Below, piece by piece: positions 1,646 through 64,000 of a DNA stretch of 64,000 nucleotides (position 1 is the stretch's first letter; each line of letters opens with the position of its first letter). The position numbers and the translations under genes were made by a program. Origin of the DNA: an uncultured virus (IMG/VR IMGVR_UViG_2850943043_000004) (Duplodnaviria; Heunggongvirae; Uroviricota; Caudoviricetes); IMG/VR virus record IMGVR_UViG_2850943043_000004, positions 62,001 through 126,000 of that record. One strand, given 5' to 3'. The notes beneath the pieces were generated by a model that made no database searches, had not been told where the DNA came from, and saw only the letters and a list, made by a program, of their open reading frames with translations.

Positions 1646-1745
1646 ATTGTTGATAATTATGGATAATCAGGTTATAATAAAATTAACAAATACAAAAAAT
1701 ATAAACATTATAAAATGCATATTTTAAACAGAAAGGAATTTAAAA

Positions 1746-1937
1746 ATGAGGAAACGTTTAATTGGTCAATACTTACGTGCTGTGCAAAATCGAAAACATA
1801 AAAAAGGTAATATGAATGAATTTGAAATAGCAGGCCAGTATTTATGTCGCATTAAGGAATTTCAATGGGATTCTTCTATGGATGAAAATAAGGATTTTTG
1901 GATGAAAGTTAAGAAATTAGTTGATGAAAATAGATGA
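1746..1937 (+). CDS. hypothetical protein
   Basis: ORF with AAAGGA RBS. Confidence 0.6.
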   Translation: MRKRLIGQYLRAVQNRKHKKGNMNEFEIAGQYLCRIKEFQWDSSMDENKDFWMKVKKLVDENR

Positions 1938-1980
1938 AGATAGTTTGTAAGTTATATGCTCCCAATTAAGTGTTTGTGAG

Positions 1981-2169
1981 GTGTTTTCTTTGTTTCATTC
2001 ATGGAAGAGTGTTTTGATTAGTATCGTTGTTATATTTGTGCTTGGTCTGGTGCTTTCAGCTATTGCTACATTTGTTCCAGGTGGTGGTCTTATTGCACCA
2101 TGGTTATATTTCATTAGTGGTGTAGTTTATATGATGTTTTTAATAAGAAGAAAATTTAAATCTCAATAA
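1981..2169 (+). CDS. small two-TM membrane protein
   Basis: 62 aa, hydrophobic, basic C-terminus. Confidence 0.55.
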   Translation: MFSLFHSWKSVLISIVVIFVLGLVLSAIATFVPGGGLIAPWLYFISGVVYMMFLIRRKFKSQ

Positions 2170-2247
2170 AACATGGATTTTAAAGTGATTTTAAGGAGGC
2201 ATCTAGACAATGTTGAAGAAGCTTTTAACATGAAAGGTGTTATAAAC

Positions 2248-2631
2248 ATGCAAATTTTAAGGATCTTTATTGTTCATGTCTTGTCTGCATTATCAGCTGC
2301 TGTTGTTTATGTTTTGGGCATTGATTATGATGGTTATATTCCGTACTTCTTAATAAGTGTTATTCTCTTTATCTTCTATTTAATCTTTGCTGCACCTGTT
2401 CAATATTTCTTGAATCGCAATCCAAAAAGGTTTAGCCTGAATTATTTGCTTACATACATATTCTTTTCCTTTTTAGTGTGGTTAATCTTTGCTATAACTA
2501 CTGACCCAAAAACCACAATAGACTTTCTAATGGGATATGAAATTTACTTATTTAGCATTTCCTTTGCTGTAATCTTTTGGATCTGGGATTCAGTTTTTCT
2601 GCAAAACAAGGCAAAGAAAGCAGTTAAGTAA
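2248..2631 (+). CDS. UPF0715 (YopD-like) membrane protein
   Basis: Four hydrophobic segments, AAPVQYFL motif; start MQILR after AAAGGTG RBS. Confidence 0.6.
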   Translation: MQILRIFIVHVLSALSAAVVYVLGIDYDGYIPYFLISVILFIFYLIFAAPVQYFLNRNPKRFSLNYLLTYIFFSFLVWLIFAITTDPKTTIDFLMGYEIYLFSISFAVIFWIWDSVFLQNKAKKAVK

Positions 2632-2719
2632 GAACGTCATAAAATTTCTTCCTTATTAAGAAAAAGACTATCCTTTAATTACCAATTTATATTACAATTG
2701 GAATAAAAGGGGAGAGGGA

Positions 2720-3151
2720 ATGAAAAAATTAATCGCTCTGACTATGATTTGCCTTGGCTTTATGTCGAGTTTTAGTATTCCAAATGCCGAGGCAAAGCTT
2801 ACATTAGAGTACAAAAATGTTAACTTTCACATGAGTGAGGATTCAGAAAGTTTTTCTATGGCAGATTATTTTGATCGTGATTATGACCGTACTTGGCTAT
2901 TTTACAAATTCACAATTCGCAATGCTGAAGGTTGTACTCTAAATATGAAAATCAGCAGAATTACTCTTGCTGGCTGGGTATTCCCACGTAGTGAGAAAGA
3001 ATTTACCGGAAATTATTTAGACTATACAGACCGAGTAGAAGGAGATGCTAATCGTAATCACGTGTTAGAGATTACAAAGAATCCAGGTTGTGGAGATGTT
3101 TGGATAAACGGTATTTATGGATTTGAACATGAAGAGCCTGATGAGTATTAA
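2720..3151 (+). CDS. secreted hypothetical protein
   Basis: Signal peptide MKKLIALTMICLGF..AEA; followed by hairpin GGCCAAGG/CCTTGGCC. Confidence 0.75.
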   Translation: MKKLIALTMICLGFMSSFSIPNAEAKLTLEYKNVNFHMSEDSESFSMADYFDRDYDRTWLFYKFTIRNAEGCTLNMKISRITLAGWVFPRSEKEFTGNYLDYTDRVEGDANRNHVLEITKNPGCGDVWINGIYGFEHEEPDEY

Positions 3152-3241
3152 ATTCAGCGAGGCCAAGGAGAAAAAAGCCTTGGCCATTATTATTTATTTA
3201 ATGATCATTTTAAGTGATCAGAAATAACCAAAGGTGAGAAC

Positions 3242-3462
3242 ATGATTAAATAAATTTAAAGCCCATAATAGACGAAAGAAAGATCAGTATACGGAAGCTA
3301 TCCAGAGATATTGATCATGAGTATCCGACCGTCAGAAAGCTTTATAATGACGAAATGGAGCGGTATCCAAGAGAGCTACTGGATAAAGTCTGTACATACC
3401 TAAACATCGAGCTGCAGGAATTGCTGATATTCGAAAAAAGCCATAACCATATCGATGGATAA
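3242..3462 (+). CDS. yopB: Xre-family HTH regulator (YopB-like), frameshifted at the 5' A run
   Basis: Restored: [36 protein letters not shown]..; TGATCA-N7-TGATCA palindrome upstream (3202-3220). Confidence 0.7.
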
Positions 3463-3534
3463 AGATGAAAATGGTATACTAAAGTTGCAGAGATAGGAAA
3501 CATTTACATATTACTTAAGAGGATGGTTTAAAAT

Positions 3535-3768: not shown

Positions 3769-3814
3769 ACTAAGTTTCAATAAAATCGTACTTTTAACTA
3801 GATAGGGGTGCAAC

Positions 3815-4090: not shown

Positions 4091-4137
4091 AGTAATTAAG
4101 TTAAAATCATTCTTTTATTTTAATTGGAGGGGTACAT

Positions 4138-4771: not shown

Positions 4772-4799
4772 ATAAGATTTTTAAGGGGGTGGTAAATAT

Positions 4800-7186: not shown

Positions 7187-7242
7187 AATTTAGGCCAGTT
7201 TTAGAGCTGGCCTTCTAAATAAAATAGGAATTTTAAAGAGAA

Positions 7243-7300
7243 TACAAATGCAAAAAATATGTATAAAATAATTGACTCGTAATGTGATCTATAGTATTAT
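7243..7300 (+). promoter_or_regulatory. SPBRE plus sigma-A promoter of aimR
   Basis: AAAAATATGTATA, then TTGACT(7272)-17 bp-TATTAT(7295). Confidence 0.75.
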
Positions 7301-7343: not shown

Positions 7344-8503
7344 ATGGAGTTAATAAGGATAGCTATGAAGAAAGACTTGGAAAATGACAACTCTTTAATG
7401 AATAAATGGGCAACAGTAGCTGGCCTTAAAAACCCCAATCCTCTTTATGACTTCTTAAACCATGATGGGAAAACATTTAATGAATTTCTTCAATAGTCAA
7501 CATTGTTAAGAGTCAGTATCCAGACCGTGAATATGAATTTATGAAAGATTACTGTTTAAACCTAGATGTAAAGACAAAGGCAGCAAGAAGTGCATTGGAG
7601 TATGCTGATGCAAATATGTTTTTTGAAATAGAGGATGCTTTAATAGATTCAATGATTTCTTGCAGCAATATGAAAAGTAAAGAATATGGAAAAGTGTATA
7701 AAATACATAGAGAACTGTCTAACAGTGTTATTACTGAATTTGAGGCAGTGAAAAGACTCGGTAAATTAAATATAAAAACACCTGAAATGAATTCTTTCTC
7801 AAGACTTTTGCTGCTTTATCATTATTTAAGCACTGGTAACTTTTCTCCGATGGCCCAACTTATAAAACAAATTGACCTAAGTGAGATTTCTGAGAACATG
7901 TACATTAGAAATACATATCAAACAAGAGTTCATGTTCTAATGTCTAATATAAAGCTAAATGAAAATTCATTAGAGGAGTGCAGAGAGTACTCTAAAAAGG
8001 CATTGGAAAGTACAAATATCCTGAGATTTCAGGTTTTCAGCTACTTAACTATTGGCAACTCTCTATTATTTTCGAATTATGAATTGGCTCAAGAAAACTT
8101 TTTAAAAGGGCTAAGCGTTTCTGTTCAAAATGAAAATTACAACATGATTTTCCAACAGGCTTTGTGCTTCTTAAATAATGTATGGCGCAAAGAAAATAAG
8201 TGGATTAATTTTGAATCTGAGTCAATTATGGATTTGCAGGAGCAAGCTCATTGTTTTATCAACTTTAATGAAAATTCCAAAGCAAAAGAAGTTTTGGATA
8301 AACTAGATCTTTTAGTTCACAACGATAATGAGCTTGCAATGCATTATTATTTGAAAGGAAGACTCGAACAAAATAAAGCATGTTTCTATTCTTCAATCGA
8401 GTATTTTAAAAAGTCTAATGACAAATTCCTTATTAGGCTGCCACTGTTAGAACTGCAAAAGATGGGTGAAAATCAAAAACTTTTAGAATTACTTTTACTT
8501 TAA
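7344..8503 (+). CDS. aimR: arbitrium receptor AimR (YopK), SPbeta type; apparent frameshift near 7487
   Basis: N-terminus MELIRIAMKKDLENDNSLMNKWATVAGLKNPNPLYDFLNHDGK joins ORF 7541..8503 (TPR region) if one T is restored. Confidence 0.95.
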
Positions 8504-8927: not shown

Positions 8928-8953
8928 GATGAAAAAGATAAAAATATGTATAT
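8928..8953 (+). promoter_or_regulatory. SPBRE upstream of yopM
   Basis: AAAGATAAAAATATGTATATA. Confidence 0.7.
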
Positions 8954-8967
8954 AGGAGGTTGGTGGT

Positions 8968-9535: not shown

Positions 9536-9748
9536 ATGTCAGAGCGAATAAAACAGCTAATGGTCAAACGTGGCATCACAATAGAGGAATTGTCGAGGGA
9601 GACAATGATTGATATTCAGAAATTAAACAAAATCATTGAAATGCCAGATGAATCAGATGTTACAACCATAAAGCTTATCGCTCTGGTATTGAATGTCTCT
9701 ATTGATGAGTTATTGGATGAGAAAGGAGGAGAAGATAATGCAAAATAA
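9536..9748 (+). CDS. yopO: Xre HTH regulator YopO
   Basis: HTH_3 pattern, 70 aa. Confidence 0.8.
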   Translation: MSERIKQLMVKRGITIEELSRETMIDIQKLNKIIEMPDESDVTTIKLIALVLNVSIDELLDEKGGEDNAK

Positions 9749-10814
9749 AGTTAAACAATTAAAAAATTATGCGGTTTACGATGATATCGAGGGCTTTTTA
9801 ATCAATAAAGATATAAGAAGTAGCTCAGGGAATTCTAACTATATGATGCCTTCATCAACTAGAAGGGTGTCGAACACCAGAAAGAATTATGAAGGGGATA
9901 TTAAGCAGTTCTTTAGTGTGATTAAAGGTAAAGATGTCAAAAGTTTAGTTCCCGATGATTTAGTTGTAAGTAAAAGCGAATTAAGCAACTATGTGAAGTA
10001 TCTTCAGGAAAAGGGATTAGTTAATAATAGTATTAACAGAAAAATGACCTCCCTGAAGATGCTCTATACATATTTGGAGCATGATTATAAGGACTATATT
10101 GACTTGTCGGTGTTTAATACTGTCGAAAGGCTTAAAACAGTAACTAAAAACTGGGATAAAACAACCCAGACAGAAGCCGAAAGAATCGCTCAGGATATGT
10201 ATATAAATGAAAGACAGAAACCTTTAATGAAAAAGCTGTTTGTTAAATTCGCCATCAGAACTTCTTTTCGTGTAAGTGCGATTTTGCGAGTAAGATGGAA
10301 AGACATACAGCTTGATGAAAGTACAGGCCATTATATAGTAACAGTTATTGATAAAGGATCTCAGGTTGTGTCTACAGGCATTAACCAGGTATTTTATGAG
10401 GAATTGTTGCAGCTGAAGGAAGAGGATGACATCGAAACTGAATTGGTTTTTCAGGGGCTTTCGGAACAATCTTTACGACACTCCTTAAAAAGGTCGAAAA
10501 AAAGATTAGGAATACCTCCTGAAAGAGAATTAGTCTTACACTCATTTAAGGGTGTAGGAATTGACTATGTCTATGAGAATTCTGGTCACGATTTACTTGC
10601 AGCAAAAGAACAAGGAAATCATAAAAACACATTAACAACAGAGAGATATATGAGCAGAAAGATTAACATAGCGAACTCTGCTGGTGTAACAATGGATGAA
10701 AAAATCGATTTAAATCCACTATATGAAGCAACCCAAGAGGATTTTATTAGTTTTTTTGAAAACGCTGATCTTGTTACATTAAAAAAGTTTATAAAGCATG
10801 TAAATGAGCGATAA
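9738..10814 (+). CDS. yopP: tyrosine-recombinase-fold protein YopP
   Basis: RTSFRVS, DKG, HSFK, GNH and TERY motifs. Confidence 0.85.
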   Translation: MQNKVKQLKNYAVYDDIEGFLINKDIRSSSGNSNYMMPSSTRRVSNTRKNYEGDIKQFFSVIKGKDVKSLVPDDLVVSKSELSNYVKYLQEKGLVNNSINRKMTSLKMLYTYLEHDYKDYIDLSVFNTVERLKTVTKNWDKTTQTEAERIAQDMYINERQKPLMKKLFVKFAIRTSFRVSAILRVRWKDIQLDESTGHYIVTVIDKGSQVVSTGINQVFYEELLQLKEEDDIETELVFQGLSEQSLRHSLKRSKKRLGIPPERELVLHSFKGVGIDYVYENSGHDLLAAKEQGNHKNTLTTERYMSRKINIANSAGVTMDEKIDLNPLYEATQEDFISFFENADLVTLKKFIKHVNER

Positions 10815-12326: not shown

Positions 12327-13303
12327 ATGTTCAATAGTGAGATTAAGGAAAAATATTTAGATACCTTATCTGAGGGTATGGTTATGCAGATGAGGCCTAT
12401 TTTTGCAAAAGCAGAGATTACTGAGACTTTATATAATAAAGACATTTATGATTTCACATCAATGCAAATTTTAGAACTTATACGATCATTCGATCAAACC
12501 ACTATTGGTAGTGTTCGAAGAACCTTAGCATTATTGTCATTGTATATTGATTGGGCAATTTCATATAAGTTAAGTAAAGGATTAACCAATTTGGCAAGAA
12601 CTATTTCTGAAGAAGAGCTTTATGAATGTCTCGGAGACAAAAATTATATATTACTTATAGTGAATTAGAGGAAATGGAAAATCAATTAGTTAACTATCAA
12701 TCAAAGGCTGTATTAAGGCTGTTGTTTGAAGGGGTTTCAGGTTTAGCTCATTCTGAATTGCTAAGTTTAACGAAGAAGCAAGTTGAGGATGCAATGCTTA
12801 ACGGTAACGTTTTAACCCTGTATGATTCAAAGCACGGTGAACGAAAACTAAAAGTAAGTAGTGAATGTCTTGTTATTGCCTTAAATGCAGCTCAGGAAAC
12901 TAAATATAAATTAAAGAATGGGAAGGCAAAAGGCCAAACAAAAGAAGTCTTTTTAGTTGAAAATGATTATGTAGTTAAAACAAAAAGAACGTCTAACAAA
13001 GGAGACGGCCAAGCAAGCAAATTTGTCATAACTAATTTAATTACCGATATATCTGAGTTCTTTAAAATTAACTTTTTAACACCAAACACTATTGTTAGAT
13101 CTGGTCATTTATATAGAGCATATCAGCTTTATAAAGAAAAAGGGGTTATTGATAACTCTGTAAGGTATCAGATTATAGATGACTTTAATTTAAGAGTGAA
13201 ATCCAAATATCGAGCAGTTTATTCAATGCAAGATTATATTAATGAGGAAGAAGTTAATAAATATTACGCAGAAGAACTAGGTCTAAAAGAGACGACCATT
13301 TAA
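12327..13303 (+). CDS. yopR: master repressor MrpR/YopR (integrase-like fold), frameshifted near 12640
   Basis: ORFs 12315..12668 and 12626..13303 join at an A run; syntenic; terminator at about 13309-13345. Confidence 0.85.
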
Positions 13304-14417: not shown

Positions 14418-14473
14418 TTGACAGATATTAAATGATGGTTATAGTTTATTCAAATACAAATAATATGTATATA
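14418..14473 (+). promoter_or_regulatory. sigma-A promoter and SPBRE upstream of yopV
   Basis: TTGACA..TATAGT, then CAAATAATATGTATATA. Confidence 0.7.
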
Positions 14474-14492
14474 GGAGATGGTAAAGGGAGCT

Positions 14493-14687: not shown

Positions 14688-14772
14688 ATTGTGTAATTTT
14701 CACTAAGGTAACAAAATTAAAATTAGTGGATAAAATGTAAGTTTTATCGAGATTCAGATAAGGAGGAATAAC

Positions 14773-16068: not shown

Positions 16069-16089
16069 TAAAAGATGCATTTTAAATAA

Positions 16090-17296: not shown

Positions 17297-17347
17297 AAAC
17301 AGAATCTAATTAAAATTGAAGTTTTAAATGAAATACAGGAGGGATCA

Positions 17348-18202: not shown

Positions 18203-18275
18203 ACAAGTGGGTCTGTCAAGCATTCTTACACTGAATAAAAAGACTGTTTTAACGGAAATGAGAGGTGAACAGTTA

Positions 18276-20960: not shown

Positions 20961-21037
20961 TTAAAGGGGATTTTCTCAAGGCCATACACATTAAAGTTAA
21001 ATTAAAATCGTGATTTTAAACAGATAGGAGGAAACGG

Positions 21038-21868: not shown

Positions 21869-21948
21869 ATAAAAGATAGTTTTTAACTGAACATATAAGG
21901 ATAGATCGTCATCGAAAAAGCACACGTATCGATAACGATCATAAAGTA

Positions 21949-22098: not shown

Positions 22099-22261
22099 TT
22101 ATTCCACCTCCGAGACAAAAATGTCCAGTCTCTTTTATATGGCAAGCGTATGACAACCGGCTTGCAGTAATAAAGGTGAAATGAATCTTGGAAATTTAAA
22201 AAGGTTTAAAAAAAACTCATTTTAAATAAAATATTTATTTTAATGAAAGGAGGCAACCAAA

Positions 22262-25528: not shown

Positions 25529-25798
25529 AAAATTAAATTGGACAAAGAGTACATGGTAAATGAATTGGGGCTGCCGGAGTCTTCACTACTGGAAGAAATC
25601 ACTGACACGTCTAGGTGGAGCATTCACTATAGAATCGTGTTCTCATATCAGGGTCGCTTTTTTGAAACTTTCTATAGCAAAGGTGCAACTGAAAACCAGT
25701 ATGAAAGCCCTTGGGAATTTGAAGATCAAGTGGATTGTTATGAAGTGGAGTTAAAAGAAGTGAAGGTTAGAAAATGGGTAAGAAAAGAAACTGAATAA
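25526..25798 (+). CDS. hypothetical phage protein
   Basis: ORF with RBS; SRWS..Y..GATE.Q pattern. Confidence 0.65.
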   Translation: MKIKLDKEYMVNELGLPESSLLEEITDTSRWSIHYRIVFSYQGRFFETFYSKGATENQYESPWEFEDQVDCYEVELKEVKVRKWVRKETE

Positions 25799-25834
25799 AA
25801 ACGATATTTTAACCAGAATCCAGGAGGTAATGAA

Positions 25835-26229
25835 ATGAACTTATATGAAATTATGCTAGAACACTTTGCACCCAAGGGAAGTGAGCGGGGTATCTGTACA
25901 TACGTGCTTGCTCAATCTGATGAAGAGGTATATGAATGGTTGAAAACTGATCCAAGCCTATCTGACGGCAGGGTAGTCTATACCCCATATCAAGACAACG
26001 AAGAAGACGGTAAAACATATGCAATTTATAATCAGAGCTTTGATATTGTTGGTCATGAAAATATAAAGATCGAATGATTCGATTAAAAGGTGAGTTGAAT
26101 GATGAAGTTGAACTAACCGATCTTTATTACGGAATGACCTTAGTCGGGTGGCGTATGGTGAAATCGGATATTTCAACGGAACAAATTGAATTGTTAAAAG
26201 ATACTGGCATCAGTATGGAGTTTGCATAA
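25835..26229 (+). CDS. YoqY-like protein (frameshifted)
   Basis: ORF 25835..26077 continues in another frame to TAA 26227. Confidence 0.5.
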
Positions 26230-26323
26230 AAGTAATTTTTTATTCGGATAAGGGGTGGTACTAATGTGATTGCTTAAAAGATGAGAAAAGAATAAAATAA
26301 AATTATATAAGGAGAGTTGTTAA

Positions 26324-29853: not shown

Positions 29854-29977
29854 TCAACTCAGGAACTGCCATTGTGTGGCTCCTTGACCCTTGTAACTCA
29901 TAAAATGATAATTTTATTCGAATTAAAAAGAGTGCAAATGAAATGCAAAAATAAAAATATAAAAGTTTATAAACATG

Positions 29978-30005
29978 TAGACAAAGATAAAAATATGTAT
30001 ATAAT
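29978..30005 (+). promoter_or_regulatory. SPBRE/promoter upstream of yorE
   Basis: TAGACAAAGATAAAAATATGTATATAAT. Confidence 0.8.
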
Positions 30006-30037
30006 AAACTCAAGTTGAAGGGAAGGAGGCGAATTAC

Positions 30038-32922: not shown

Positions 32923-34434
32923 TTGCTACAAGACAAACAGGCAATAATTCAAGTTTTAGGGAGCATTTTAAAAGATCCCACAATCTTGTCAGAGAGCAAT
33001 AAATATAAGATAACTTCGGATGATTTTCCTTCAAGGTTTCATTCAATATTATTTTTTGCCATGAGCAACCTATTTCATCAAGGAACTGAAGTATTGAATG
33101 ACGTTGAAATAGATGGATATCTAAAGGATTACGATATTCAATATAAAATTTTCCATGATAATAAGGGTCTTGAATATATAGAAAAATACAAGAGTTGGCA
33201 GTTGTCGAAAACTTTGATTACCACTATAAAAGATTAAAAAGTTTAGTCTGCTTAGAGAAATGGATGGCTTGGGATTCGATATTAAGGAAATATATGATGA
33301 ATCTCTGATTGACCCAAAAGAACAAGAAAAGATGCAAGAACAGTTTGATAAGAAGTCGATTGATGAAATTTTGACAGCTTATGAAATGAAGATTGTAGAC
33401 ATAAAAGAAAAATTCAGAACTTCATCTGAAAGTATGGGAATCCAGGGTGGAGAAGGTATTAATGAATTATTGGATTCATTCGAAGAGTCGCCGGATATTG
33501 GAGTTCCATTAAATAGCGAAATGCTTACTTCAATTTTTCGGGGATCACGGAAGAAAAAGTTCTATCTGCGCTCAAGTATTACAGGTGGCGGTAAAACAAG
33601 AAACATGGTCGCTGACGCTTGTCGCTTAAGTGCAACTGAACTTTATGATCCTAAAAAGAAGGAATGGGTATCAAACCCATGGAGTGAAAGTTCTACAGTT
33701 ATTTCAACAGAAATGATGGCCGAAGAATTGCAAAGTTTAGCACTTGCCTACATTAGTAGTGTAGAAGAGAAAAAAATCCTTAGAAACACAATCAATGAAA
33801 AAGAAAAACAACTTGTTCGTAAGGCTGCTAAGGTTCTTCAAGAGTCTAACATATGGTTCGAACATCTGCCTGATTTTAATATTCAGGAGATTGAAAGAAC
33901 AATTGAAAAGAACGTCATTAAAACAATGTAGAGTACGTTTATTTCGATTATATTCACTCATCAGTAACCATTTTTTCAGAGATGAGCAAAAAAAGCGGTG
34001 TCAACTTGAGGGAAGACCAAATTCTTTTGCTTATGTCGGATAAGTTAAAGGGCTTATGTAACAAATACGATGTCTATATGATGAGCGCAACTCAGTTGAA
34101 TGGTGATTGGAAAGAAGCATGGTTAAAAGGACAAGTAATAGATGCTTCTTATTTGAGAGGAAGTAAGGCTATCGCAGATAAAACAGATGCTGCAATGATT
34201 ATTCTTCCTTTAAGTAAAAAAGAGAAGGATGCAATTGATCCAATTTTAAAAGAAGGATTTTATCCAGAGCCAAATTTTGTTACACATGTATTTAAAAATA
34301 GGGGAAATGAGTATGACAAAGTTAAAGTCTTCTCCCATATCAATATGGGCAACATGCGGATAAAGGACTGTTTCACAACAAATCTTGACAATGAACTAAT
34401 CACAGTTGAGAAATTGAATATAAAAGCAGGATGA
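32923..34434 (+). CDS. yorI: replicative helicase YorI (DnaB-like), split by frameshifts
   Basis: SITGGGKT, STEM, SATQLN and LRGSKAIADK motifs. Confidence 0.85.
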
Positions 34435-35582: not shown

Positions 35583-37310
35583 TGGAGTATAAACTAATTG
35601 GAGACAATGATTATAATTTCGATCCTTTAGCTACTATCTTGAGAAATAGAGGCATAGAAGATCCAAAGTTGTTTGTTAATGTTGATCACAGTTCAGTTAT
35701 TCATTATTCAAAGCTTAATAATATTGATAAAGCTGCAGATTGTCTTATCAAGCATTTAAAGAATAAAATAAATTGTTTGTTCAGGTAGACAGTGATGTTG
35801 ATGGATACACATCCAGCTCAATCATTATAAATTACATAAAGAAGATTTGTCCGAAAGCTAATATACATTACAGAATTCAAGATGGGAAAGAGCATGGGAT
35901 TTTTATTGATACAATTCCTGATGATGTTGACTTAGTCATAATCCCAGATGCAGGTTCAAGTCAATTTGAGGAACATGAGGCTCTTAATAAGAGAGGCACA
36001 GAAATAATTGTTATTGATCACCATGAATGTGAACGAGTGTCTGAACACGCGATCGTAGTAAATAATCAACATTCGCCTAATTATTCGAATAAAACTCTGA
36101 CAGGTGCAGGAATGGCCTATAAATTTTGCCAAGCAGTAGATGAAAAGCTAAATAAAAATGAAGCTGAACAATTCTTAGACCTTGTATCTATTGGTAACAT
36201 TGCAGATTCGGCTGATTCAAGAAACCTTGAAACCAGGTATTTTATGAATGAAGGCTTGAAGAAAATTAAGCATCCATTATTAAAGAAGCTATTTAAGAAG
36301 CAAGAGTTTTCAACCAAGGGTGACAAGAACATACAGAATACACAATTCTTTATTAACCCCTTAATTAACGCTGCCATTAGGGTTGGAAGCAGTGAAGAAA
36401 AAGATCAAATGATGAGAGCATTCTTACTTTCTAAAGAAAAGGTCCCCTACAAAAACGTGGACAAAATGATACTGAGCTTGTGTCAATTCATGATGACACG
36501 GTTAGGGTTCTAGGAAATCTAAAGGCAAAGCAGAAGCGAATTGCTGATGCAGCTGGAGCTGAAATTAAAAATAGAATAGAGGAGAAAAATTTAACAGCGA
36601 ATAAAGTACTCATTGTTTACATTGAAGGGATTCTAGATAAAAGCCTAACTGGACTGGTGGCCAATCAGCTTGCAGAAGAATATAAAAAGCCGGTCTTGTT
36701 AGCTAGGAACGATCCAGAGAAAGGTAAAGAGATCTTGAGTGGCTCTATACGAGGATATGACAAAGGGTTTATTAAGGACTTTAAAAAAGTGCTTTTAGAA
36801 ACTGGATTATTTGAGTTTGTTGAAGGTCATCCAAACGCAGCTGGATTTGCAATTAGACGAGAGAACTTAATCCTGGTAAACGAAGTGCTGAATGAAAAAT
36901 TTAAAGACATAGATATCGAAGAAGATAATCAGTATGTTGATTTTGAGATACCAGCAAAACAATTGAGAAAAGAATTTATACTTCAACTTGATGGTTACAA
37001 AGACTATTGGGGTTACAAAGTAGAAGAACCATTAATAGCAATAACGGATCTTGAAATTGATGTCGAACAAATTGAACATTTAGGAAAAAAAAATAAGACA
37101 ACAGTTAAATTCAAGCATGGTGATATTGAATACATAAGATTTAAAAGTGATGAGAATTACTTTAATCAGCTTACAGAAACAAATGGAACATTAATCATTA
37201 ATGTAATTGGTAAAGCAAAGGCAAATGAATACAAAGGCAAGAAAACACCTCAAATCGAGATTTATGAATTGGAGGTGGTTCGCACAAAACAAAAAGAACT
37301 TGTGTTTTAA
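35582..37310 (+). CDS. yorK: RecJ-like ssDNA exonuclease YorK (frameshifted)
   Basis: DSDVDG, IDHH, GSIR and GHPNAAG motifs. Confidence 0.9.
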
Positions 37311-40300: not shown

Positions 40301-41233
40301 TTTTGGAGACAGGCAAGAAATCATGAAGGCCTTTATTAGCTTAATATCAGAACCAAAAAGTAAGCTTACGTTGTCTAATTTAAAAGTGCTAATTGAAAAC
40401 AACATTGTTCCTTCAGAATTTGCACAAGAAGTGAGATTTTTCGCTTTAAAGATTACATCAGCAAAAAGGTGTACAAAACATTAAAGTCGCCAAAAGATAA
40501 ATTTCTTTTATTGGATGATGTATCAGCTTCATTTTATAACCAGCATTTCAGTGAGGATAGTGTTGTTGACATGTTAAACGGGCAGCTTGTCATTTCTGAA
40601 AAAGCTTTTAAAAAAGAATATGATAACAAGATGTCTAATATAAAGTCCTGGATAACAACAGAAGAACCACTGAAGAAATTGAATGATTGTTTATTAATAA
40701 AAGAGTGGGAAAAATACGCCGATGGGTCATTAGGCAAGTGGGAAATGGATTCATTGAGCTATTATTATAATGACCATGAGCTTTCTGGTGTAAACTTTGC
40801 CAAGTATGATATTGCTGACTTTTATAAACTGCCAGCAGAGCCAGTCAAAGGTAAACCTTATCAATGGAGAGGGAAAACTCTCTATGAATATGAGACTACA
40901 CGGATTATAGGCACTGTTTTAGATAGGGATAAAAACAAACATACAATTACTCTTCTAACACCTACAGGGGTAGTTACAGTTAAACAGTGGTCGGGTAGCT
41001 TTAGTCATTACAATAAACAGATTTCTAGATCCATTGGCGGCGGAAAGAAAGAGGTAGTCGAGAAATCTTGGTATACCAGAGGAACATTGCTCATGTTTAC
41101 TGGTTTCAGAAGAGGTAACAATTTTATTCCGAAAGTCTATAAAGATAGCATATATAATCACACTGTCTGCAGAATAGACAATGTTGATAATGAAGGAAAT
41201 ATGAGTTTGACAACTAAAAGGACAGAAATATAA
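37323..41233 (+). CDS. yorL: DNA polymerase III alpha (DnaE-type) YorL, several frameshifts
   Basis: PHP HCHTD/AITDH, RGSAAG, PDIDID, HAAGVII, KFDLL. Confidence 0.93.
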
Positions 41234-41255: not shown

Positions 41256-41974
41256 ATGAAAATTTTCAAAAAACTTATAGACAAATATAAAAAATATGTA
41301 TATCATAGAGTTAACGAAATGACACTTTTTGCTACAATTGGTTTGTTAGGAGTAGGGCTCGTTTATAGCGCTAAAAACTTGTATACACATCAAGACAATC
41401 AAGTCTCAATAAAAGAGTCATTTTATCTAAATAAAAAAGAGGTGACCCAAAAACTAATTCATGAAATTGACGTTCCAAGAATCCTTCCTAGGCTAAAGAG
41501 TGAGGAAGAAAAGCAAGCTGAAAGTAGAAAAAAGTATCTTAATGCGACGATTACATATCTAACAGAAGAAAATAAAAAGCAGCAAAACACAAAAACAAAA
41601 AAAGTGCAAAAATTAATAAAAAGAGAAGTGAAGATAACCCAGCTTCAAAAAGTACTAATGTAAAGGCAGTGAAGAGTCATGAAGTGATTGCCACTGCTTA
41701 CACAGCGTTTTGTTCTACAGGGTGCACAGGGAAAACAAAAACCGGCTATGATGTATCAAACACATCCTATTACAATGGAAAAAGAATAATCGCTGTTGAT
41801 CCAGAAATAATTCCTTTGTATTCATTAGTGCAAGTTTCATATGAAGGGAATAGCTTTCAAGCATATGCAATAGATACAGGAGGAGATATTAAAAACAATC
41901 GTATTGATATTCTAATGGACAGTGAGCAAGAAGCAAATGCATTTGGTCGTAAAGATGTAAGAGTAAGCTGGTAA
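41256..41974 (+). CDS. yorM: YorM, N-terminal TM plus 3D domain (frameshifted)
   Basis: ATAYT, IAVDP and AIDTGGDIKNNRIDI motifs. Confidence 0.8.
41278..41305 (+). promoter_or_regulatory. SPBRE/promoter
   Basis: TAGACAAATATAAAAAATATGTATATCAT. Confidence 0.7.
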
Positions 41975-43376: not shown

Positions 43377-43894
43377 ATGAAAAAAGTAATTGCAATTGAC
43401 ATGGATCAGGTCTTAGCTGATTTACTAAGTGATTGGGTAGCTAACATTAACACACACGATGATCCTTTTCTCAAAGAGGAGGACATCCTGTGCTGGGATA
43501 TAAAAAAATATACAAATACCAACAATAATGTTTATAGACATTTAGATTACAATTTGTTCAGAAATCTTGATGTTATAGAAGGCAGCCAAAGAGTAGTAAA
43601 AGAGCTGATGAAGAAATATGAAGTATATGTTGTGACTACTGCAACAAACCATCCAGAGTCCCTTAAAGCAAAGCTTGAATGGCTTACTGAGCATTTTTCA
43701 TTTATCCCACATAGCAATGTAGTGCTTTGTGGCAATAAAAGCATAATTAAAGCAGACATCATGATAGATGACGCAATACATAACTTAGAATCATTTGAAG
43801 GAATGAAGATTCTATTTGATGCTCCCATAACAGGAATGACAACAGATTTATTCGTGTTATGAACTGGGAAGAGATTGAACGAAAATTACTTTAA
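43377..43894 (+). CDS. yorS: 5'(3')-deoxyribonucleotidase YorS (HAD)
   Basis: DMDQVLAD, MIDD; frameshift near 43825. Confidence 0.88.
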
Positions 43895-43917
43895 AATATC
43901 TCATTTATAGAGTTTGA

Positions 43918-44175: not shown

Positions 44176-44280
44176 CGTCTCACCCTACCTTAATTTAATG
44201 ATAACTGAATATTGAGAAAATGAACAAGAAAATATGAAAATTTAGATAAAAGATCAATTTTATCGAAATGAGGTTGTGAA

Positions 44281-44559
44281 ATGGAAGTTAAATGGTTAGT
44301 TATTTTTAATGATTGTAAAACCGGCAGTTCTTTGAGTGAGCTTACATATAGTAAGGATGGGGAAGGAAACCACCTAAGATTAGAGTCAATGGTGCCTCGT
44401 ACAGGTGACTATATTGTAGGAGGAGATCTGTCATCAGATATAAATGATAAGAGGTGCTTTATTGTGAAAAATGTCTTCTGGAATCTAGATAGGAGAGATA
44501 TAGAGGTTTATCTTTATGAGGTTGACAGGACTGTTTTCCCTTTATATAAATCGCTATAA
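44281..44559 (+). CDS. hypothetical protein
   Basis: ORF flanked by junction sites at 44247 and 44557. Confidence 0.6.
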   Translation: MEVKWLVIFNDCKTGSSLSELTYSKDGEGNHLRLESMVPRTGDYIVGGDLSSDINDKRCFIVKNVFWNLDRRDIEVYLYEVDRTVFPLYKSL

Positions 44560-44602
44560 AATTTGTCTTTTACTCAAATATAAAATAAGAGGAGTGTATT
44601 GA

Positions 44603-45657: not shown

Positions 45658-45686
45658 TAGACAAAAACAAATAATATGTATATAAT
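45658..45686 (+). promoter_or_regulatory. SPBRE/promoter
   Basis: TAGACAAAAACAAATAATATGTATATAAT. Confidence 0.8.
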
Positions 45687-45711
45687 AAATTTACATTAAA
45701 GGCGAAGGAGA

Positions 45712-45960
45712 GTGTTAATGAATCATATATGTGACATCTGTAAAGAGTACATAAGCGGAAAAACAATTTGTCTTAGAATCAGCGATGAAAAAACTTATGA
45801 AGACTTCAATTGTTGTGAAGGCTGTGCAAAGGGTTATTCCGAGAGAGTGAAAAATGAATGCAGTAATTTAAGTGTTAAGAAGACATTAGAACATTTAGGA
45901 CTAAATAACAAATACAAAATAGAGGATAAAATATTCCTTTTATCGAGAATGGAGAGATGA
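45712..45960 (+). CDS. YorZ-like Cys-rich protein
   Basis: CDIC..CCEGC; true stop probably the TAA at 45927. Confidence 0.6.
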   Translation: MLMNHICDICKEYISGKTICLRISDEKTYEDFNCCEGCAKGYSERVKNECSNLSVKKTLEHLGLNNKYKIEDKIFLLSRMER

Positions 45961-47040: not shown

Positions 47041-47082
47041 ATAAAATTCAATTTTTAAAGAGACTTAAAAGGAGGTGAATAA

Positions 47083-48867: not shown

Positions 48868-49298
48868 AATAGTTGGATTGGAAATTAATTGACAAAGATG
48901 GTAACTTTCTAAAATGGGTTAATTGTCAATATGATGCAAGTGATATCGCAACAATGATGTATGAGGCCCAGATAGTTACCTTAGATTTTAATAAACAAGA
49001 AGCAAAAATTCTTAAATAGTTTAAATAAAAGGATGATTTTAAGGAGTTGATTAGACATTAGTATAAGTCAAAGGCAGTCTCAACGTATTCGAGAAGCTCT
49101 GATAAATTCAAACACAACTGCTGAGGAAATTGGAATGGATAAGGCATTATCAGAAGTTCTCAATCTACTCAAGAGAAGAATTTTGGAGCTGGAAACTTTG
49201 TATTATCCAGAGTGGGAATATGAAAATGCAAAAGTGAAGCTTGAAGAGCTTAGAGAAATGGTGAATAGAATTAATGCACTTCGAGGAACCGGGAAGGA

Positions 49299-50139: not shown

Positions 50140-50566
50140 GAGTAAAGTAAAGGATGATGAAAATGAATATTAGAGAGTTTATTGCTGAGCAGAGAAAGAC
50201 GAAAAGTTCTTGGGTTTGAGATCAAAATTAAGAGAACTAATTGAACACAGAAGACTTGAACTTGTTGAGATGCTTGGATATAAAATCGATAGTTTGAATC
50301 AAGAGCAACTTATAGAATTCAAAGAAAAATTCAGTGAATTAACTGCATTTAAAGAAAAGGTAGGTAATGATCCTTTCAGCATTAGTCTGGATGAACTTGG
50401 CGAACTTCTATGTTTCCAAAAAAATAAGGAAGGTAGATACAAAACTCTGGAGTATGTTTGAGTAAAACGATTGATCCATACATTGATAAACCAAAACAGG
50501 CTACAGCTATTTCTAGATAAATTCACAGTTTTATTCAAAATAAAAACAAAAATAAGGAGATGTAAA

Positions 50567-55332: not shown

Positions 55333-55574
55333 TGAGAGTAATTAAATTAGAGCAGCCTAATTGTAATCCATGTAAAATGGTGTCCAATTACTTAGAGCAA
55401 GCAAATATTCAATTTGAGACAGTTGACGTTACACAGGAACCAGAAGTGGCAGCTAGATTTGGTGTTATGGGAGTTCCGGTAACCGTTTTGCTGAGTGATC
55501 AAGGAGAGGAAGTAAACCGAAGTATTGGTTTTAAGCCTGATGAACTTGATGAGTTACTAAAGGAATTACGATAA
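55332..55574 (+). CDS. yosR: thioredoxin/NrdH-like YosR
   Basis: CNPC, GVP. Confidence 0.85.
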   Translation: MRVIKLEQPNCNPCKMVSNYLEQANIQFETVDVTQEPEVAARFGVMGVPVTVLLSDQGEEVNRSIGFKPDELDELLKELR

Positions 55575-55616
55575 AAGGGTAATTTTAAACAAACTTAAAT
55601 TTAAAGGAGCAAATAA

Positions 55617-59269: not shown

Positions 59270-59285
59270 AAAATATGTATAATAT
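59257..59285 (+). promoter_or_regulatory. SPBRE/promoter upstream of yosX
   Basis: TAGACAAAGGTAAAAAATATGTATAATAT. Confidence 0.75.
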
Positions 59286-59392
59286 GATAATAAGGAGGTT
59301 ATGTGACAACAGTTTTTTATTTAAAAACAAAAACAAAAAATATGCATTTTGATAAAGCTAATATTTTATTCAAACTTTAAGGAGGTGATTAA

Positions 59393-60541: not shown

Positions 60542-60575
60542 ATTAACACGTACTTAAACAAAGAAGGGGGATAAA

Positions 60576-61406
60576 ATGAAAATCGATTATGTTTCAGATC
60601 TGCATATTAATCACTGGATACCTTGGGACAATGACCAAATTAAATGGGAAAGGCGAACAAGGGAGATTATTAGAAGGCTGATATCGAATGGAAATGGAGA
60701 GGTATTAATCATTGCCGGTGATTTTACTGAGTGGAATCAACAGACACTGTGGGTACTTGATGAAGTAGCAAAGCAGTATGAAAAGGTTTACTTCACATAT
60801 GGTAATCATGATCTTTATTTACTCAGTAAAAATCAGCAACGAAAATATTCCGATTCATTGGGAAGGGTGAATGATTTAATTCAGAAGGCTACAGACATCA
60901 ATAATGTCACTCCATTAATAAAGTCTACGGATACATACAAAGGGAAAGTCTTTGCAGGAGATGTTATGTGGTATCTTCCAAAAGGAAATGAAGGATGGGA
61001 TTTCTTCAAAGGTGTCTCTAATGATTCAAACTATATCAGCCTTAATGGATACAGCAAAGAAGATGGGGTACGAGCAATGTGGAAAGAATCAATGGGCTGG
61101 TATGACACTCTTGAAAACTCTCACATTGATGTATTTGTCTCACATGTTCCACCTGTTCACAATCCTTATTCTCCGTTTGAGCCTAACAGCTGCTATATGG
61201 TTGATGTCCCGTTCATTAACGCAAAACATTGGGTTTGTGGTCATGATCATTTACAAGCTGAGTTTGACAAAGATGGAACGAGCTTTCACATGAACTGCAT
61301 TGGATATCCATATGACTATGATATGTATCCTAGAGTAAATGAGATACCAGGTAAGCAAGTTGATACGTATAAAACGTTTGAGCTGAAGACATTTGAAATC
61401 AAATGA
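60576..61406 (+). CDS. yotB: metallophosphoesterase YotB
   Basis: SDLH, AGD, GNHD and GHDH motifs. Confidence 0.85.
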
Positions 61407-61439
61407 AATTCTAATTTTATACAGAAGGGAAGGGGAGAC

Positions 61440-61631
61440 ATGGAAAATGAAGTTGTGTTTTTTTGTAGAAAATGCAATCATCACTTGTTTGCTAAAAATC
61501 CTATGATAAACACATTAAAGGTTATATCTGAAATGGATTGCCCTAATTGTGGAGAAGAGGGTTATCATAATTGGATTCTTTCGCATATAGGTGATTCAGA
61601 GAAAGAAAAGGAGAACTACAATTGGAAGTAG
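61440..61631 (+). CDS. YotC-like zinc-ribbon protein
   Basis: CRKC..CPNC. Confidence 0.65.
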   Translation: MENEVVFFCRKCNHHLFAKNPMINTLKVISEMDCPNCGEEGYHNWILSHIGDSEKEKENYNWK

Positions 61632-61669
61632 ATAAAATGTTGATTTGATTCAAAAAAGGAGGGGATGAC

Positions 61670-62026
61670 ATGTTCCTTAAATGGGTTGAAAAAAGAGAGA
61701 AGGATAAGATGATGGATGACCTAAGTGCATTCATCGACAATCTAATCAATGAAAGGGATTCCCTTGTAGACAAGGTAAGAAAGCTCAGCAAAGATGAGGA
61801 AATCGCAAAATTGTTAAAAGAAAATGATAATCTTAGAAATAATAGCCTTCATACTTTATCAGAAAAAGAAAGAAATGAAGCAGATGCTTTTAGGGATGAA
61901 CATTTGGGGAAATGCAAAGGTAGCATAGCTTATCTTTTGACAGGAGTGAGTATGGGTACAGCTGTAGAGGTTATTTGCTCCAAATGTAAAACCAAAAAAG
62001 ACATTACAGACATTAGTACGTGGTAA
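61670..62026 (+). CDS. hypothetical protein
   Basis: ORF with RBS. Confidence 0.6.
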   Translation: MFLKWVEKREKDKMMDDLSAFIDNLINERDSLVDKVRKLSKDEEIAKLLKENDNLRNNSLHTLSEKERNEADAFRDEHLGKCKGSIAYLLTGVSMGTAVEVICSKCKTKKDITDISTW

Positions 62027-62061
62027 ACAAAGTAGCGAAGTGATTTAAAGGAGATGAACTC

Positions 62062-62403
62062 TTGACTGTATATGAAAAAATTATGAGCCACCCTGAAAGC
62101 AAAAAGGCAGTGTTAATCAAGTTTGGTTTTGGGCAATTGTCCCCGATTAAAGTGGAAAAATGGTTTAAGTCATACAATCCACCCAAATACTACGAATTTA
62201 GAAAAGCAGCTAACCACAGAAAGGTTACTGACCTACATACTCAAGCAATGACAAAGGATCAAAGGACGCATTTATTAAACTTGGAAGAGGTCTTTAATGA
62301 TGAAAAGTCTAGAAATGCGTTATTAAAATTAGCAGAACAAAACACTAAGAGAAATAAGGATGGACTGACTATTATCGAAAAACATGATCCTTGGAGGGGC
62401 TAA
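62062..62403 (+). CDS. hypothetical protein
   Basis: ORF with RBS. Confidence 0.55.
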   Translation: MTVYEKIMSHPESKKAVLIKFGFGQLSPIKVEKWFKSYNPPKYYEFRKAANHRKVTDLHTQAMTKDQRTHLLNLEEVFNDEKSRNALLKLAEQNTKRNKDGLTIIEKHDPWRG

Positions 62404-62838
62404 ATGCAGGCGAACATTACTAAGGAACTGTCGTGGTGGGGAGTTACTTTGACTGGAAGTATGAAAACCGTAAAATCTTTAAGCGAGCTGATGGAAATAA
62501 ACAAAGAACTGTTCGAGAATCTCTACAAAGTCCAAACAGACACAATTGAAGAGCTTGTAAACAAATTATATGAACAGGTTCCTGAGTATGAGAAGAAATT
62601 CTTGAAGTATATTAATGAACAGCTACCTAATCTGAGGAGGTGCTTACAAGTCGAACTGCCCTATAATACTCAACTAATATCGAGCATTGAATACGAAATA
62701 TACATATCAGGTGCCGAAATTGATTGTGAATACCCTTTTGATGCGAGAGGTTGTATTATTACTTTCTTTCAACGGTTACCAGAAATAATCGATTTGCACA
62801 GGGAGGGATTGAATGAAAAACGCAATGTCCTGGTTTGA
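62404..62838 (+). CDS. hypothetical protein
   Basis: Translationally coupled ORF. Confidence 0.55.
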   Translation: MQANITKELSWWGVTLTGSMKTVKSLSELMEINKELFENLYKVQTDTIEELVNKLYEQVPEYEKKFLKYINEQLPNLRRCLQVELPYNTQLISSIEYEIYISGAEIDCEYPFDARGCIITFFQRLPEIIDLHREGLNEKRNVLV

Positions 62839-63238
62839 TTTAGATTTTGAGTTTAAACCAGACAATAACATTGATGAAGCTCTATTGCGATTATTTGATC
62901 TCATGAAGAAGAGTCTCCACATTTATTTCAATATTGAAAATTCTTCTGATATTCATGAGTTTTTAAAAATCGCTGCAACAAAGAGCAATGTTGATTATTC
63001 CTTCATTGAATGGATTAGGGGAAAGGGCATCCCAAGATTAAAGAAAATTGATTTCGAAAATTTACCAAGCAATGATCAATTTCTTGCAATGATTGAGATC
63101 GATGAATACTGTCTTAAATGTGAGATGGATTTTAAAGAGCCAGAAGAGGTAAGGGGTTGCATCATCACGATCATTAATAGTATTCAGGAATATACTAATA
63201 TTTGCAAACAGTTAATTAAGGGAGGGCGAGTGATCTGA
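62813..63238 (+). CDS. hypothetical protein
   Basis: Translationally coupled ORF. Confidence 0.55.
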
Positions 63239-63401
63239 TTGTTACGGCATGGGTTTTATTAGTTGTATTTGGGCTTGTGTTTTTAGCAAATGTGGATTCC
63301 GAAGAGGATATTAAATTTGCAGTGTATATTGGTGTAATAAAATTTGTTTCAGTTTTCATTGTTGCAATTGCAGCAGGTGTAATATGGGGAGGGTTGTTTC
63401 A

Positions 63402-63644
63402 ATGAGTGATATTGAAAATAAGTATGTGAAACTAAAGCATGTTAAAGAACTATTGGGGTTAATAAAGACCAGAGACAGTTATTATGATTGGTCGGATAAC
63501 TATGAAAAATATGATAACAAAGTAAAAAATACAGTAGAGTGGTTGGAACGGAATGCTAAAACATTGGATAAGCCGATCAAATTTAATCAAAAAGAAGAAT
63601 TTTATGAAGTGACAAATTATGAACCAGTGGAATTAAGTAAATGA
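63402..63644 (+). CDS. hypothetical protein
   Basis: ORF after GGGAGGG. Confidence 0.55.
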
Positions 63645-64000
63645 ATAAGCCGGTAATAACGTTAACATATGGTTTGGGTATTGTTGAAGCGTTTATTATG
63701 GGTTTTACCTTAGCACAGAAGTATTTTGTTCCGGCCATCATAAGTGGGATATTGACTTTAATCATTGGTTATTTCCATGTATGTAAAGGCTCAAAAACTA
63801 AATAAAATCGGTCTTTTATTTAGAGTGAAAATAAAATTAGTGGATAATTTAAGGGATTTATGAATTTAAAAGTCCAACTAATAAGCCAAAGAGACTTAAC
63901 ACTATTGAAATGCAAAGAAAAGCCCATATCAAAGCTGTTAAGGGATTGTTAAGTCCAATCCTTTCTTTCCATCCTATTTTAGTGGATTCAGCAGTTTTAT

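Follow-up and report, generated by a model that had tools for sequence, protein, structure and literature searches.

The stretch of DNA analysed here (the window) comprises 64,000 nucleotides, positions 62001–126000 of the 128,697-bp record IMGVR_UViG_2850943043_000004. It belongs to an SPbeta-like Bacillus phage in which a short dyad, TAAAA-N6-TTTTA, recurs many times, and this dyad is our subject. SPbeta is a model temperate phage with strong mosaicism, and the window aligns in mosaic blocks of 92–98% identity with the Bacillus phages SPbeta, SPR, phi3T and the Goe phages. All of its long open reading frames (ORFs) lie on the + strand. Of the 82 genes conserved with SPbeta at ≥85% identity, 21 are split between reading frames, including DNA polymerase (in eight pieces), the master repressor gene yopR/mrpR (12327–13300), aimR (7344–8500), the yorI helicase gene (32923–34431), yorL (37323–41230) and the gene for YonO. 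These frameshifts most likely reflect indel errors of the assembly, not a decayed phage, and because the record is frameshifted the curated annotation of SPbeta was taken for all tests that need gene borders. The main comparison covers six genomes, namely this phage and five complete relatives (SPbeta, phi3T, SPR and BUCT082 among them), which form 15 genome pairs.

The window contains 26 exact copies of TAAAA-N6-TTTTA, compared with a mean of 1.07 and a maximum of 6 in dinucleotide shuffles, none of which (0 of 100) reaches 26. A preliminary description of the same stretch had reported 21 exact and eight near cores against about one expected by chance; the exact copies had been undercounted, while the chance expectation and the enrichment over shuffled sequence hold. 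The enrichment is confined to a spacer of 6 bp, which occurs 34 times in the whole 128,697-bp phage, whereas every other spacer from 0 to 14 bp occurs 0–3 times. Cores with one mismatch are at chance overall (27 versus 31.5 ± 5 expected), indicating that the core is very strict. Six such cores in the window (16881, 43892, 47507, 59353, 61404 and 61633) nevertheless have a centre that is exact in a relative, and the near copies of the preliminary description were thus roughly right as real decayed copies. The two sites that it quoted, with cores at 44247 and 63803, are correct as written. The sites and one gene of interest are listed below in window coordinates. Sites carry no strand; entries from 1711 to 63803 are exact cores, and those at 43892, 61404 and 61633 are one-mismatch copies.

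1711..1726, site, centre TGCATA; present in all six phages compared
2167..2182, site, centre CATGGA; exact core
3781..3796, site, centre TCGTAC; exact core
4102..4117, site, centre TCATTC; exact core
7220..7235, site, centre TAGGAA; just upstream of the aimR SPBRE promoter, SPbeta homology begins exactly here
13063..13078, site, centre TTAACT; within the yopR/mrpR coding sequence
14731..14746, site, centre TGTAAG; exact core
16069..16084, site, centre GATGCA; 24-bp island in a relative's contig
17311..17326, site, centre TTGAAG; exact core
18236..18251, site, centre AGACTG; island in the relative's contig
21003..21018, site, centre TCGTGA; exact core
21870..21885, site, centre GATAGT; SPbeta cognate 92394 is one end of a 360-bp cassette swapped between SPbeta and BUCT082
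22227..22242, site, centre TATTTA; SPbeta cognate 92753 is the other end of the 360-bp cassette; 20-bp island in the relative's contig
25796..25811, site, centre ACGATA; island in the relative's contig
26227..26242, site, centre GTAATT; exact core
29901..29916, site, centre TGATAA; ahead of the yorE promoter; phi3T and BUCT082 have it inverted (TTATCA)
34247..34262, site, centre GAAGGA; within the yorI helicase gene
36782..36797, core match, centre AAGTGC; within an ORF, no exact cognate in the five relatives, possibly a chance match
41410..41425, site, centre GAGTCA; within annotated yorM; SPbeta and phi3T have AAGTCA
44247..44262, site, centre GATCAA; left border of a swapped cassette (92-aa ORF here, mtbP in SPbeta)
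44557..44572, site, centre TTTGTC; right border of the 92-aa ORF/mtbP cassette
45927..45942, site, centre TATTCC; SPbeta homology stops exactly here
47042..47057, site, centre TTCAAT; exact core
49026..49041, site, centre GGATGA; both flanks unrelated to the cognates in all four of the four relatives holding it
55572..55587, site, centre GGGTAA; exact core
63803..63818, site, centre TCGGTC; exact core
43892..43907, decayed copy (one mismatch), centre TATCTC; exact in phi3T and SPR, a long SPbeta homology block stops here
61404..61419, decayed copy (one mismatch), centre TTCTAA; start of a 245-bp block 99% identical to SPbeta
61633..61648, decayed copy (one mismatch), centre TGTTGA; end of the 245-bp block 99% identical to SPbeta
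9693..10814, + strand, yopP, Xer-like tyrosine recombinase and candidate site binder; Pfam Phage_integrase at 7.6e-10 plus an N-terminal SAM-like domain, catalytic residues kept

Position counts extend the consensus to TCTnnA-TAAAA-N6-TTTTA-WnnAGA, in which the inner 5 bp are invariant by the search pattern itself and the outer TCT/AGA is weaker. Within a single site the outer arms pair at 2.38 of six positions, compared with 2.35 ± 0.19 when arms are shuffled between sites, so that they are conserved as sequence and not as pairing partners, with no covariation. The symmetry of 11-bp arms proposed in the preliminary description therefore applies to the consensus and not to single sites; the pair quoted there, which matches at five of six positions, is the best of the 26. 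Centres begin with T or G and end with A or C, and these terminal bases are mutually complementary in only five of the 26 sites. The core hairpin, with its five A-U pairs, averages +0.6 kcal/mol, and the minimum free energy of the 28-nt element is −1.7, versus −0.8 for shuffles. An unstable hairpin, unpaired outer arms and unpaired centre ends together point to a symmetric protein reading double-stranded DNA, rather than to RNA or a single-strand fold. Two inverted arms of ~11 bp around a 6-bp centre, with the inner bases fixed and the centre free, have the anatomy of Xer-type core sites, as the preliminary description had recognized in its 11-6-11 Xer/dif-type geometry.

The sites occupy a characteristic place between genes. 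In 14 of the 26 a start codon assigned by a start finder lies 18–30 nt past the end of the core, and in nine the preceding ORF ends with a stop codon that abuts the core or runs into it (offset −4 to 0), in keeping with the earlier statement that sites sit at a stop and ahead of the next gene. Gene junctions in SPbeta are of two kinds, tight ones (overlapping or <25 bp), which are always without a site, and longer ones. No exact site occurs in the window at the gene junctions of yopM–yopR or between yorE and yorS, and the earlier remark that sites are absent from the yopM–yopR and yorE–yorR junctions is correct for exact sites; a decayed copy (43892) lies at the yorS/yorT junction. Three window sites have cognates within annotated SPbeta genes (13063 in yopR, 34247 in yorI and 41410 in yorM), and the core at 36782, within an ORF, has an exact cognate in none of the five relatives. 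Some sites are found between convergent genes, within genes or outside operons. At SPbeta 50182–50197, a site of the late region upstream of yonB, the Shine-Dalgarno sequence GGAG falls within the 6-bp centre and the start codon directly follows the right arm.

The five complete relatives carry 30–37 sites per genome, compared with 0–2 for a reversed-pattern control. Over the six genomes we count 60 distinct centres, of which 12 are present in all six and 20 in at least five. Centres common to this phage and each relative are fully collinear (23 of 23, 19 of 19, 26 of 26, 26 of 26 and 27 of 27), and no genome of the six contains two sites with a like centre in either orientation. The DNA around a given centre is far less constant. 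Among 348 same-centre site pairs, the 120-bp flanks align on both sides in 119, on one side in 131 and on neither in 98; adjacent shared centres delimit 62 intervals, the content of which is the same in 18, partly different in 36 and unrelated in eight. Between GATCAA (44247) and TTTGTC (44557), for example, this phage has a 92-aa ORF and both SPbeta and phi3T have a 1.35-kb methyltransferase gene (mtbP in SPbeta).

For a test of centre divergence, cognates were defined by flank homology alone. Where both flanks are homologous, mismatches occur at eight of 666 centre positions and 421 of 7548 flank positions, a rate ~5-fold lower in the centres. Pairs with homology on one flank only still have the same centre in 48 of 54 and 54 of 61 cases. 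Cognate partners in different phages thus have the matching centres of Xer-type sites, and the centres appear from these alignments to be more constrained than the flanks, an effect that is clear in direction and uncertain in size. The preliminary description had invoked a tolerance of heterologous spacers like that of Tn916-type integrases; since the centres of cognate sites are identical, such tolerance is not needed. The centre TGATAA of four phages appears as TTATCA in phi3T (89340) and BUCT082, with the left flank the same. In these two an opposite-strand gene lies on the right flank of the TTATCA copy, and no simple recombination scheme that we considered explains the flip.

Historic crossovers fall preferentially at the sites. 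When SPbeta is aligned with five relatives, homology ends at 468 points; 49 of these fall ≤12 bp from a core, compared with 4.7 expected when all bases are counted. Breakpoints are generally commoner in intergenic DNA, and gaps of like length were compared. With decayed copies added (five one-mismatch copies of known centre were counted as sites in these extended tests), 17 of 22 gaps of 25–120 bp with a site hold a breakpoint, versus 26 of 57 others (p = 0.013), and for gaps of 25–400 bp the numbers are 26 of 32 versus 37 of 77 (p = 0.0014). A separate test considered sites at which both flanks are homologous in one alignment and compared the divergence of the 300 bp on each side at p < 0.001. 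Such switches in divergence occur at ten of 39 site instances, versus eight of 122 other gaps (Fisher 0.0024) and 36 of 640 random points (1.1e-4). The mismatches begin ≤27 bp from the core and often at the first base past it. Between two sites, SPbeta and BUCT082 share an identical segment of 360 bp with ~10% divergence on both sides. Left-hand breakpoints are exact at the core edge, outer-arm identity being 0.50–0.52 against a baseline of 0.45.

A contig of a seventh relative, obtained in a public RNA-library run, aligns with the window in segments that break off at sites, and at 16069, 18236, 22227 and 25796 its match consists of isolated islands of 19–24 bp. Lost flanks, islands and divergence switches all indicate, as had been proposed, that the dyads mark places where related phages differ. 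No circle or deletion joint was found in this one public-run contig, which is a weak test, its joints being differences from the relative. Public reads add little for the window: no public run contains this phage (the best share is 0.47), none mapped from two raw RNA runs, and the 584 reads of one ribosome-profiling (Ribo-seq) run are too few to define ends at sites.

The dyad is not restricted to SPbeta-like Bacillus phages. In a de novo scan of all 5-mer dyads in distant phages, TAAAA-N6 ranks first in Psychrobacillus phage Perkons (17 versus 1.2), B. cereus phage PBC2 (23 versus 2.0) and Staphylococcus phage SPbeta-like (17 versus 2.6); it does not in Lactococcus phage 949 (7 versus 2.6) or Brevibacillus phage Sundance (0). 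The PBC2 sites likewise follow a stop codon and precede the ribosome-binding site of the next gene. In a Virgibacillus genome, 28 sites crowd into a 126-kb prophage region around a YomM-like gene, and loci around YomM-like genes in 23 species contain 36 sites, versus 4.0 for each other spacer length. In the present phage a TAAAA site lies ~20 bp past yomM, and at six of 23 loci in other species one lies where the yomM-like match ends or shortly beyond. In Perkons the dyad TGAAA-N6-TTTCA is also enriched (10 versus 1.4) and includes a copy right after the YomM-like gene, which suggests a half-site T[A/G]AAA in that lineage. The part of the Tyrovirus report available to us proposes as the attP attachment site a single 11-6-11 site beside the YomM-like structural-module recombinase gp50 (PMC9703825). 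At PBC2 10170–10250, downstream of the YomM-like gene, the perfect palindrome GAAGATTAAGA-GTAACA-TCTTAATCTTC is this published putative attP; it is outside the top six enriched dyads of PBC2 and differs from the 23 dispersed TAAAA sites there.

SPbeta integrates by means of a serine recombinase, yet has three genes of the tyrosine-recombinase type. We know of no role for two of the proteins, YopP and YomM. The third, MrpR, has lost its catalytic residues, and YopP is made in lysogens, according to the sections available of the MrpR study (PMC10516654); the YomM gene lies in the late tail operon. YopP matches Pfam Phage_integrase (PF00589) at 7.6e-10 and has an N-terminal SAM-like domain, while SPbeta YomM matches Pfam in its N-terminal domain only and has homologues for which precomputed annotation lists PF00589. 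An alignment of 12 YomM-like and YopP-like proteins retains the R, K, Hxx[K/R], H and Y positions: the first Arg, both His and the Tyr are invariant in all 12, and the second Arg is Lys in eight and Arg in four. A structural model of YomM (pLDDT 83) resembles XerA, Cre, the integron integrase IntI and XerH. A phmmer search of PDB sequences with YopP gave no matches, and its single-sequence fold (pLDDT 33) is unusable. Linking the motif to one recombinase by co-occurrence did not tie either YopP or YomM to the dyad. Judging by these residues and domains, both proteins are candidate catalysts. YomM-like proteins, whose genes are part of the operon for tail proteins, are 65–77% identical across Priestia, Fictibacillus, Virgibacillus, Paenibacillus and others, which is unusually conserved for a phage protein.

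Several identities known from this phage group and its hosts were considered for the dyad. The published repeat of SPbeta, SPBRE, is bound by the master repressor MrpR (also YopR, SroF) at ten promoters, and the available excerpt of that study gives ten peaks of chromatin affinity precipitation sequencing (ChAP-seq), all at SPBRE promoters (PMC10516654). The excerpted SroF report describes binding as a monomer that reads 24 of 26 bp (bioRxiv 10.1101/2025.11.27.690993). We derived from the ten MrpR ChAP-seq promoters a word common to nine of them, AATATGTAT, which lies within a TAGACA...TATAAT-like box and is unrelated to TAAAA-N6-TTTTA. SPBRE resembles the dyad in being a repeated intergenic SPbeta element that is bound by a protein of the tyrosine-recombinase fold; it differs in having about ten copies, each an asymmetric, monomer-bound box of 24–26 bp that overlaps −35/−10-like hexamers. 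The MrpR operator was therefore rejected as an identity for the dyad, being a long asymmetric promoter box with a different core word, and the earlier proviso that the motif might prove to be a repressor operator does not apply to this known operator. TAAAA sites do adjoin SPBRE at the aimR, yonX and yosX promoters. SPBRE-type boxes (TAGACA-N17-TATAAT-like, with AATATGTAT) are conserved in the window at the SPbeta MrpR target positions, approximately at 1632–1700, 7256–7285, 8943–8965, 14462–14490, 29992–30020, 41293–41320, 45673–45700 and 59272–59300, and several are within 40–100 bp of a TAAAA site. A promoter for the phage RNA polymerase YonO was also rejected, since the accessible portion of the YonO report places the start of the late operon at a single site upstream of yonK (PMC5467207) and most dyads are in early genes.

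A host-factor site is unlikely, because whole host genomes have no excess of the motif over the reversed-pattern control save in prophage; whole-genome counts are 72 versus 40 for B. rugosus and 10 versus 53 for Paenibacillus. The host recombinases RipX and CodV, which had been suggested earlier as possible enzymes, are thus unlikely to act on a motif that is confined to prophage. In the literature searched, a scope that left out the 1999 SPbeta genome paper and the supplements of papers, we found no description of a dispersed TAAAA-N6-TTTTA motif.

Taken together, the arm anatomy, the private and ordered centres, the crossover preference and the presence of two recombinases that keep catalytic residues make recombinase core sites the most economical account. 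We favour, tentatively and with slightly less than even confidence, the reading that the dyads are Xer-type core sites which recombine only with the like-centred copy in a related genome. The double-stranded dyad would be read by a paired phage protein through its two 11-bp arms, with the inner 5 bp (TAAAA/TTTTA) fixed, and the 6-bp centre would not be specified by the protein, each genomic position keeping its own. We infer the protein, the chemistry and the need for identical centres in strand exchange. The partner of a site would be its positional counterpart in the genome of a related, co-resident phage, and never another site in the same genome. One crossover would then swap genome arms and two would swap the genes between them, with gene order kept in both cases; the likeliest catalysts would be the two Xer-like recombinases of the phage, YopP and YomM. 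From the preliminary description this reading retains the geometry, the marking of variable places and the swapping of genes, for which the conserved, ordered centres and the crossover preference provide support as an exchange between cognate sites, and it drops insertion and excision, spacer tolerance and the host enzyme. It is possible, if rather doubtful, that large SPbeta-type siphoviruses of Bacillales as a group possess a built-in, genome-wide, site-specific ‘sexual’ recombination, in which ~30–45 sites with common arms and private 6-bp addresses are exchanged by a phage Xer-like enzyme between like-addressed sites of co-resident relatives. Under such an address system genes would be shuffled as intact units of ribosome-binding site, ORF and stop, and the genome would never be scrambled or deleted.

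A number of observations weigh against Xer-type core sites. The genome comparisons are non-independent, and the eight centre differences amount to three substitutions. Within a genome the centres show a trend towards over-dispersion that is not significant (null fraction 0.03–0.27). Only 28 of 272 distinct breakpoint clusters are at sites, and in gaps of 25–120 bp the exact sites hold a breakpoint in 12 of 17 cases versus 31 of 62 for site-free gaps (p = 0.17). The excess over length-matched gaps is a modest ~1.7-fold, breakpoints being found at 71–77% of sites and also in 46–50% of gaps without one. The ten switches stem from ~7 sites, and right-hand breakpoints scatter to ~+24 bp past the core. 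In the laboratory-evolved phi3Ts × SPbeta hybrids Hyb1–3, the major crossovers lie within parent-identical tracts of 1.4, 4.9 and 18.2 kb, which fits ordinary homologous recombination and neither supports nor excludes site use; these tracts themselves end on sites. The candidate enzymes raise further difficulties. SPbeta YopP and YomM have Lys at the expected second catalytic Arg, and the SPbeta-type and phi3T-type YopP proteins are only 32% identical, yet both types of phage share arms and centres. Both recombinases occur without an enriched TAAAA dyad in Lactococcus phage 949, Brevibacillus phage Sundance and a Paenibacillus prophage, and the PBC2 site beside the YomM-like gene has arms GAAGATTAAGA, not TAAAA.

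The main rival, unlikely in our estimate but to be taken seriously, is a regulatory dyad: an operator or roadblock for a dimeric phage protein that silences or punctuates long operons, for which the stoperators of mycobacteriophage L5 provide a model, with exchange as a by-product of short homology. The niche between stop codon and ribosome-binding site, the preferred distance to the start codon and the same placement in PBC2 would suit such an element. The phage already has a repressor of the recombinase fold, and YopP, which is expressed in lysogens, could act as a regulator like its relative MrpR. Cognates share 16–28 bp of identity, enough for short-homology exchange, which would also be confined to cognate copies, and the frequent breakpoints in gaps without a site and the modest excess over matched gaps would be explained. 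That repeated regulatory cassettes can mediate shuffling is indicated for the PeSL elements of T4-type phages in the part of the report available (PMC2839356). A contact-free spacer should drift, however, whereas the centres diverge far less than their flanks and persist when both flanks are replaced. YopP and YomM keep catalytic residues, unlike MrpR, whose reported ChAP-seq peaks are all accounted for by SPBRE promoters, and sites between convergent genes or inside genes do not fit the regulatory niche. A breakage hot spot, at which a phage nuclease such as an HNH endonuclease nicks or cuts the dyad and repair proceeds from a co-resident relative, is improbable. It would account for the strict recognition sequence and for historic crossovers that concentrate at or just to the right of the core, and several HNH endonucleases are annotated in SPbeta-like phages; it leaves the private centre of each site unexplained, the phages compared have no nuclease that co-varies with the motif, and the anatomy is a better fit to a recombinase core site.

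Much the same low standing belongs to the model of the preliminary description, in which integron- or pdif-like cassettes are cut out as circles and inserted elsewhere by a spacer-tolerant recombinase. The 11-6-11 geometry agrees with it, as do the single genes or small groups bounded by sites, with many intervals partly different or unrelated between phages, and the pdif sites that flank adaptive genes on Acinetobacter plasmids (PMC6449649, in excerpt). Integration of a circle would leave, and excision would need, like-centred duplicates, so that their absence from all six genomes, in either orientation, counts against insertion and excision; the perfect collinearity of shared centres, seen in five of five comparisons, likewise indicates that cassettes stay at their addresses. 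In an integron the integrase gene adjoins an attI site, the cassettes have a common promoter and each of them ends in a folded attC; the dyads instead run through the entire 128-kb genome, to either side of yopP and yomM, and have neither a stable single-strand fold nor covariation. The single public-run contig has no circle or deletion joint, and host chromosomes are not enriched. About as improbable, finally, is an RNA element, in which the palindrome would fold in polycistronic mRNA as a signal for processing, stability or translation ahead of the next ribosome-binding site. The position of sites in transcribed intercistronic gaps just upstream of a Shine-Dalgarno sequence would agree with this. 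The RNA hairpin was rejected on its energy and on the lack of covariation, the stem being invariant rather than covarying, without compensatory changes, with outer arms that do not covary and with centre ends that seldom pair; the dyad thus does not behave as the RNA-processing signal that had been named as a possible refutation. An RNA element would also leave unexplained the conservation of the loop sequence, the crossovers at sites and the sites that lie outside operons.

If the dyads are addressed recombinase sites, mosaic evolution in these phages would be partly programmed, with crossovers steered to gene borders and gene order kept, which would differ both from random illegitimate exchange and from classic mobile cassettes. 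They would also provide orthogonal sites, of natural origin, with which B. subtilis phages could be engineered, and the roles of YopP and YomM become directly testable. If the dyads are operators instead, they would represent an unknown second layer of gene control in SPbeta.

Among known systems, the XerH–difH complex of Helicobacter has the same arm and centre anatomy as the dyad. The available part of that study describes arms of 11 and 10 bp around a 6-bp centre, in which recognition is specific at the inner 5 bp, contacts with the outer bases are mostly to the backbone, the centre is hardly touched and palindromic arm versions are active (PMC5241119). The difference is one of number and purpose: difH is a single site per chromosome that serves dimer resolution, whereas the dyad occurs ~34 times per phage genome, each copy with its own centre. 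In arm sequence the dyad probably differs from the B. subtilis dif site as well. Like the dyads, pdif sites have the Xer-type 11-6-11 form and occur many times beside accessory genes of a mobile replicon, with modules that vary between relatives (PMC6449649, in excerpt). The pdif sites are worked by host XerC/XerD and their modules move between plasmids and positions, whereas the dyads are phage-specific, with symmetric arms and a fixed order of centres, and exchange alleles in place. The PeSL (promoter-early stem-loop) elements, which excerpts of two reports describe as promoter–terminator units exchanged by homologous recombination (PMC2839356, PMC4122927), are also short repeats that lie between genes in variable parts of a large phage genome, at which relatives have exchanged, gained or lost genes. 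The dyad is unlike them in its 16-bp length, its locus-specific centre and the lack of promoter or terminator features: position counts reveal no conserved −35 upstream of the core, and the unstable hairpin has no GC stem. The Tyrovirus putative attP likewise consists of a 6-bp core between two 11-bp inverted repeats and follows immediately on the stop of a YomM-like gene; it is described as a single integration site, whereas PBC2 also has the 23 dispersed TAAAA sites, on which the excerpted report is silent. Heterospecific lox and FRT sites have identical arms and different centres and recombine only when like-centred, so that two of them allow cassette exchange without deletion. That form of cassette exchange is engineered, whereas the dyads would be a natural, genome-wide set of ~45 addresses with a presumed need for matching centres.

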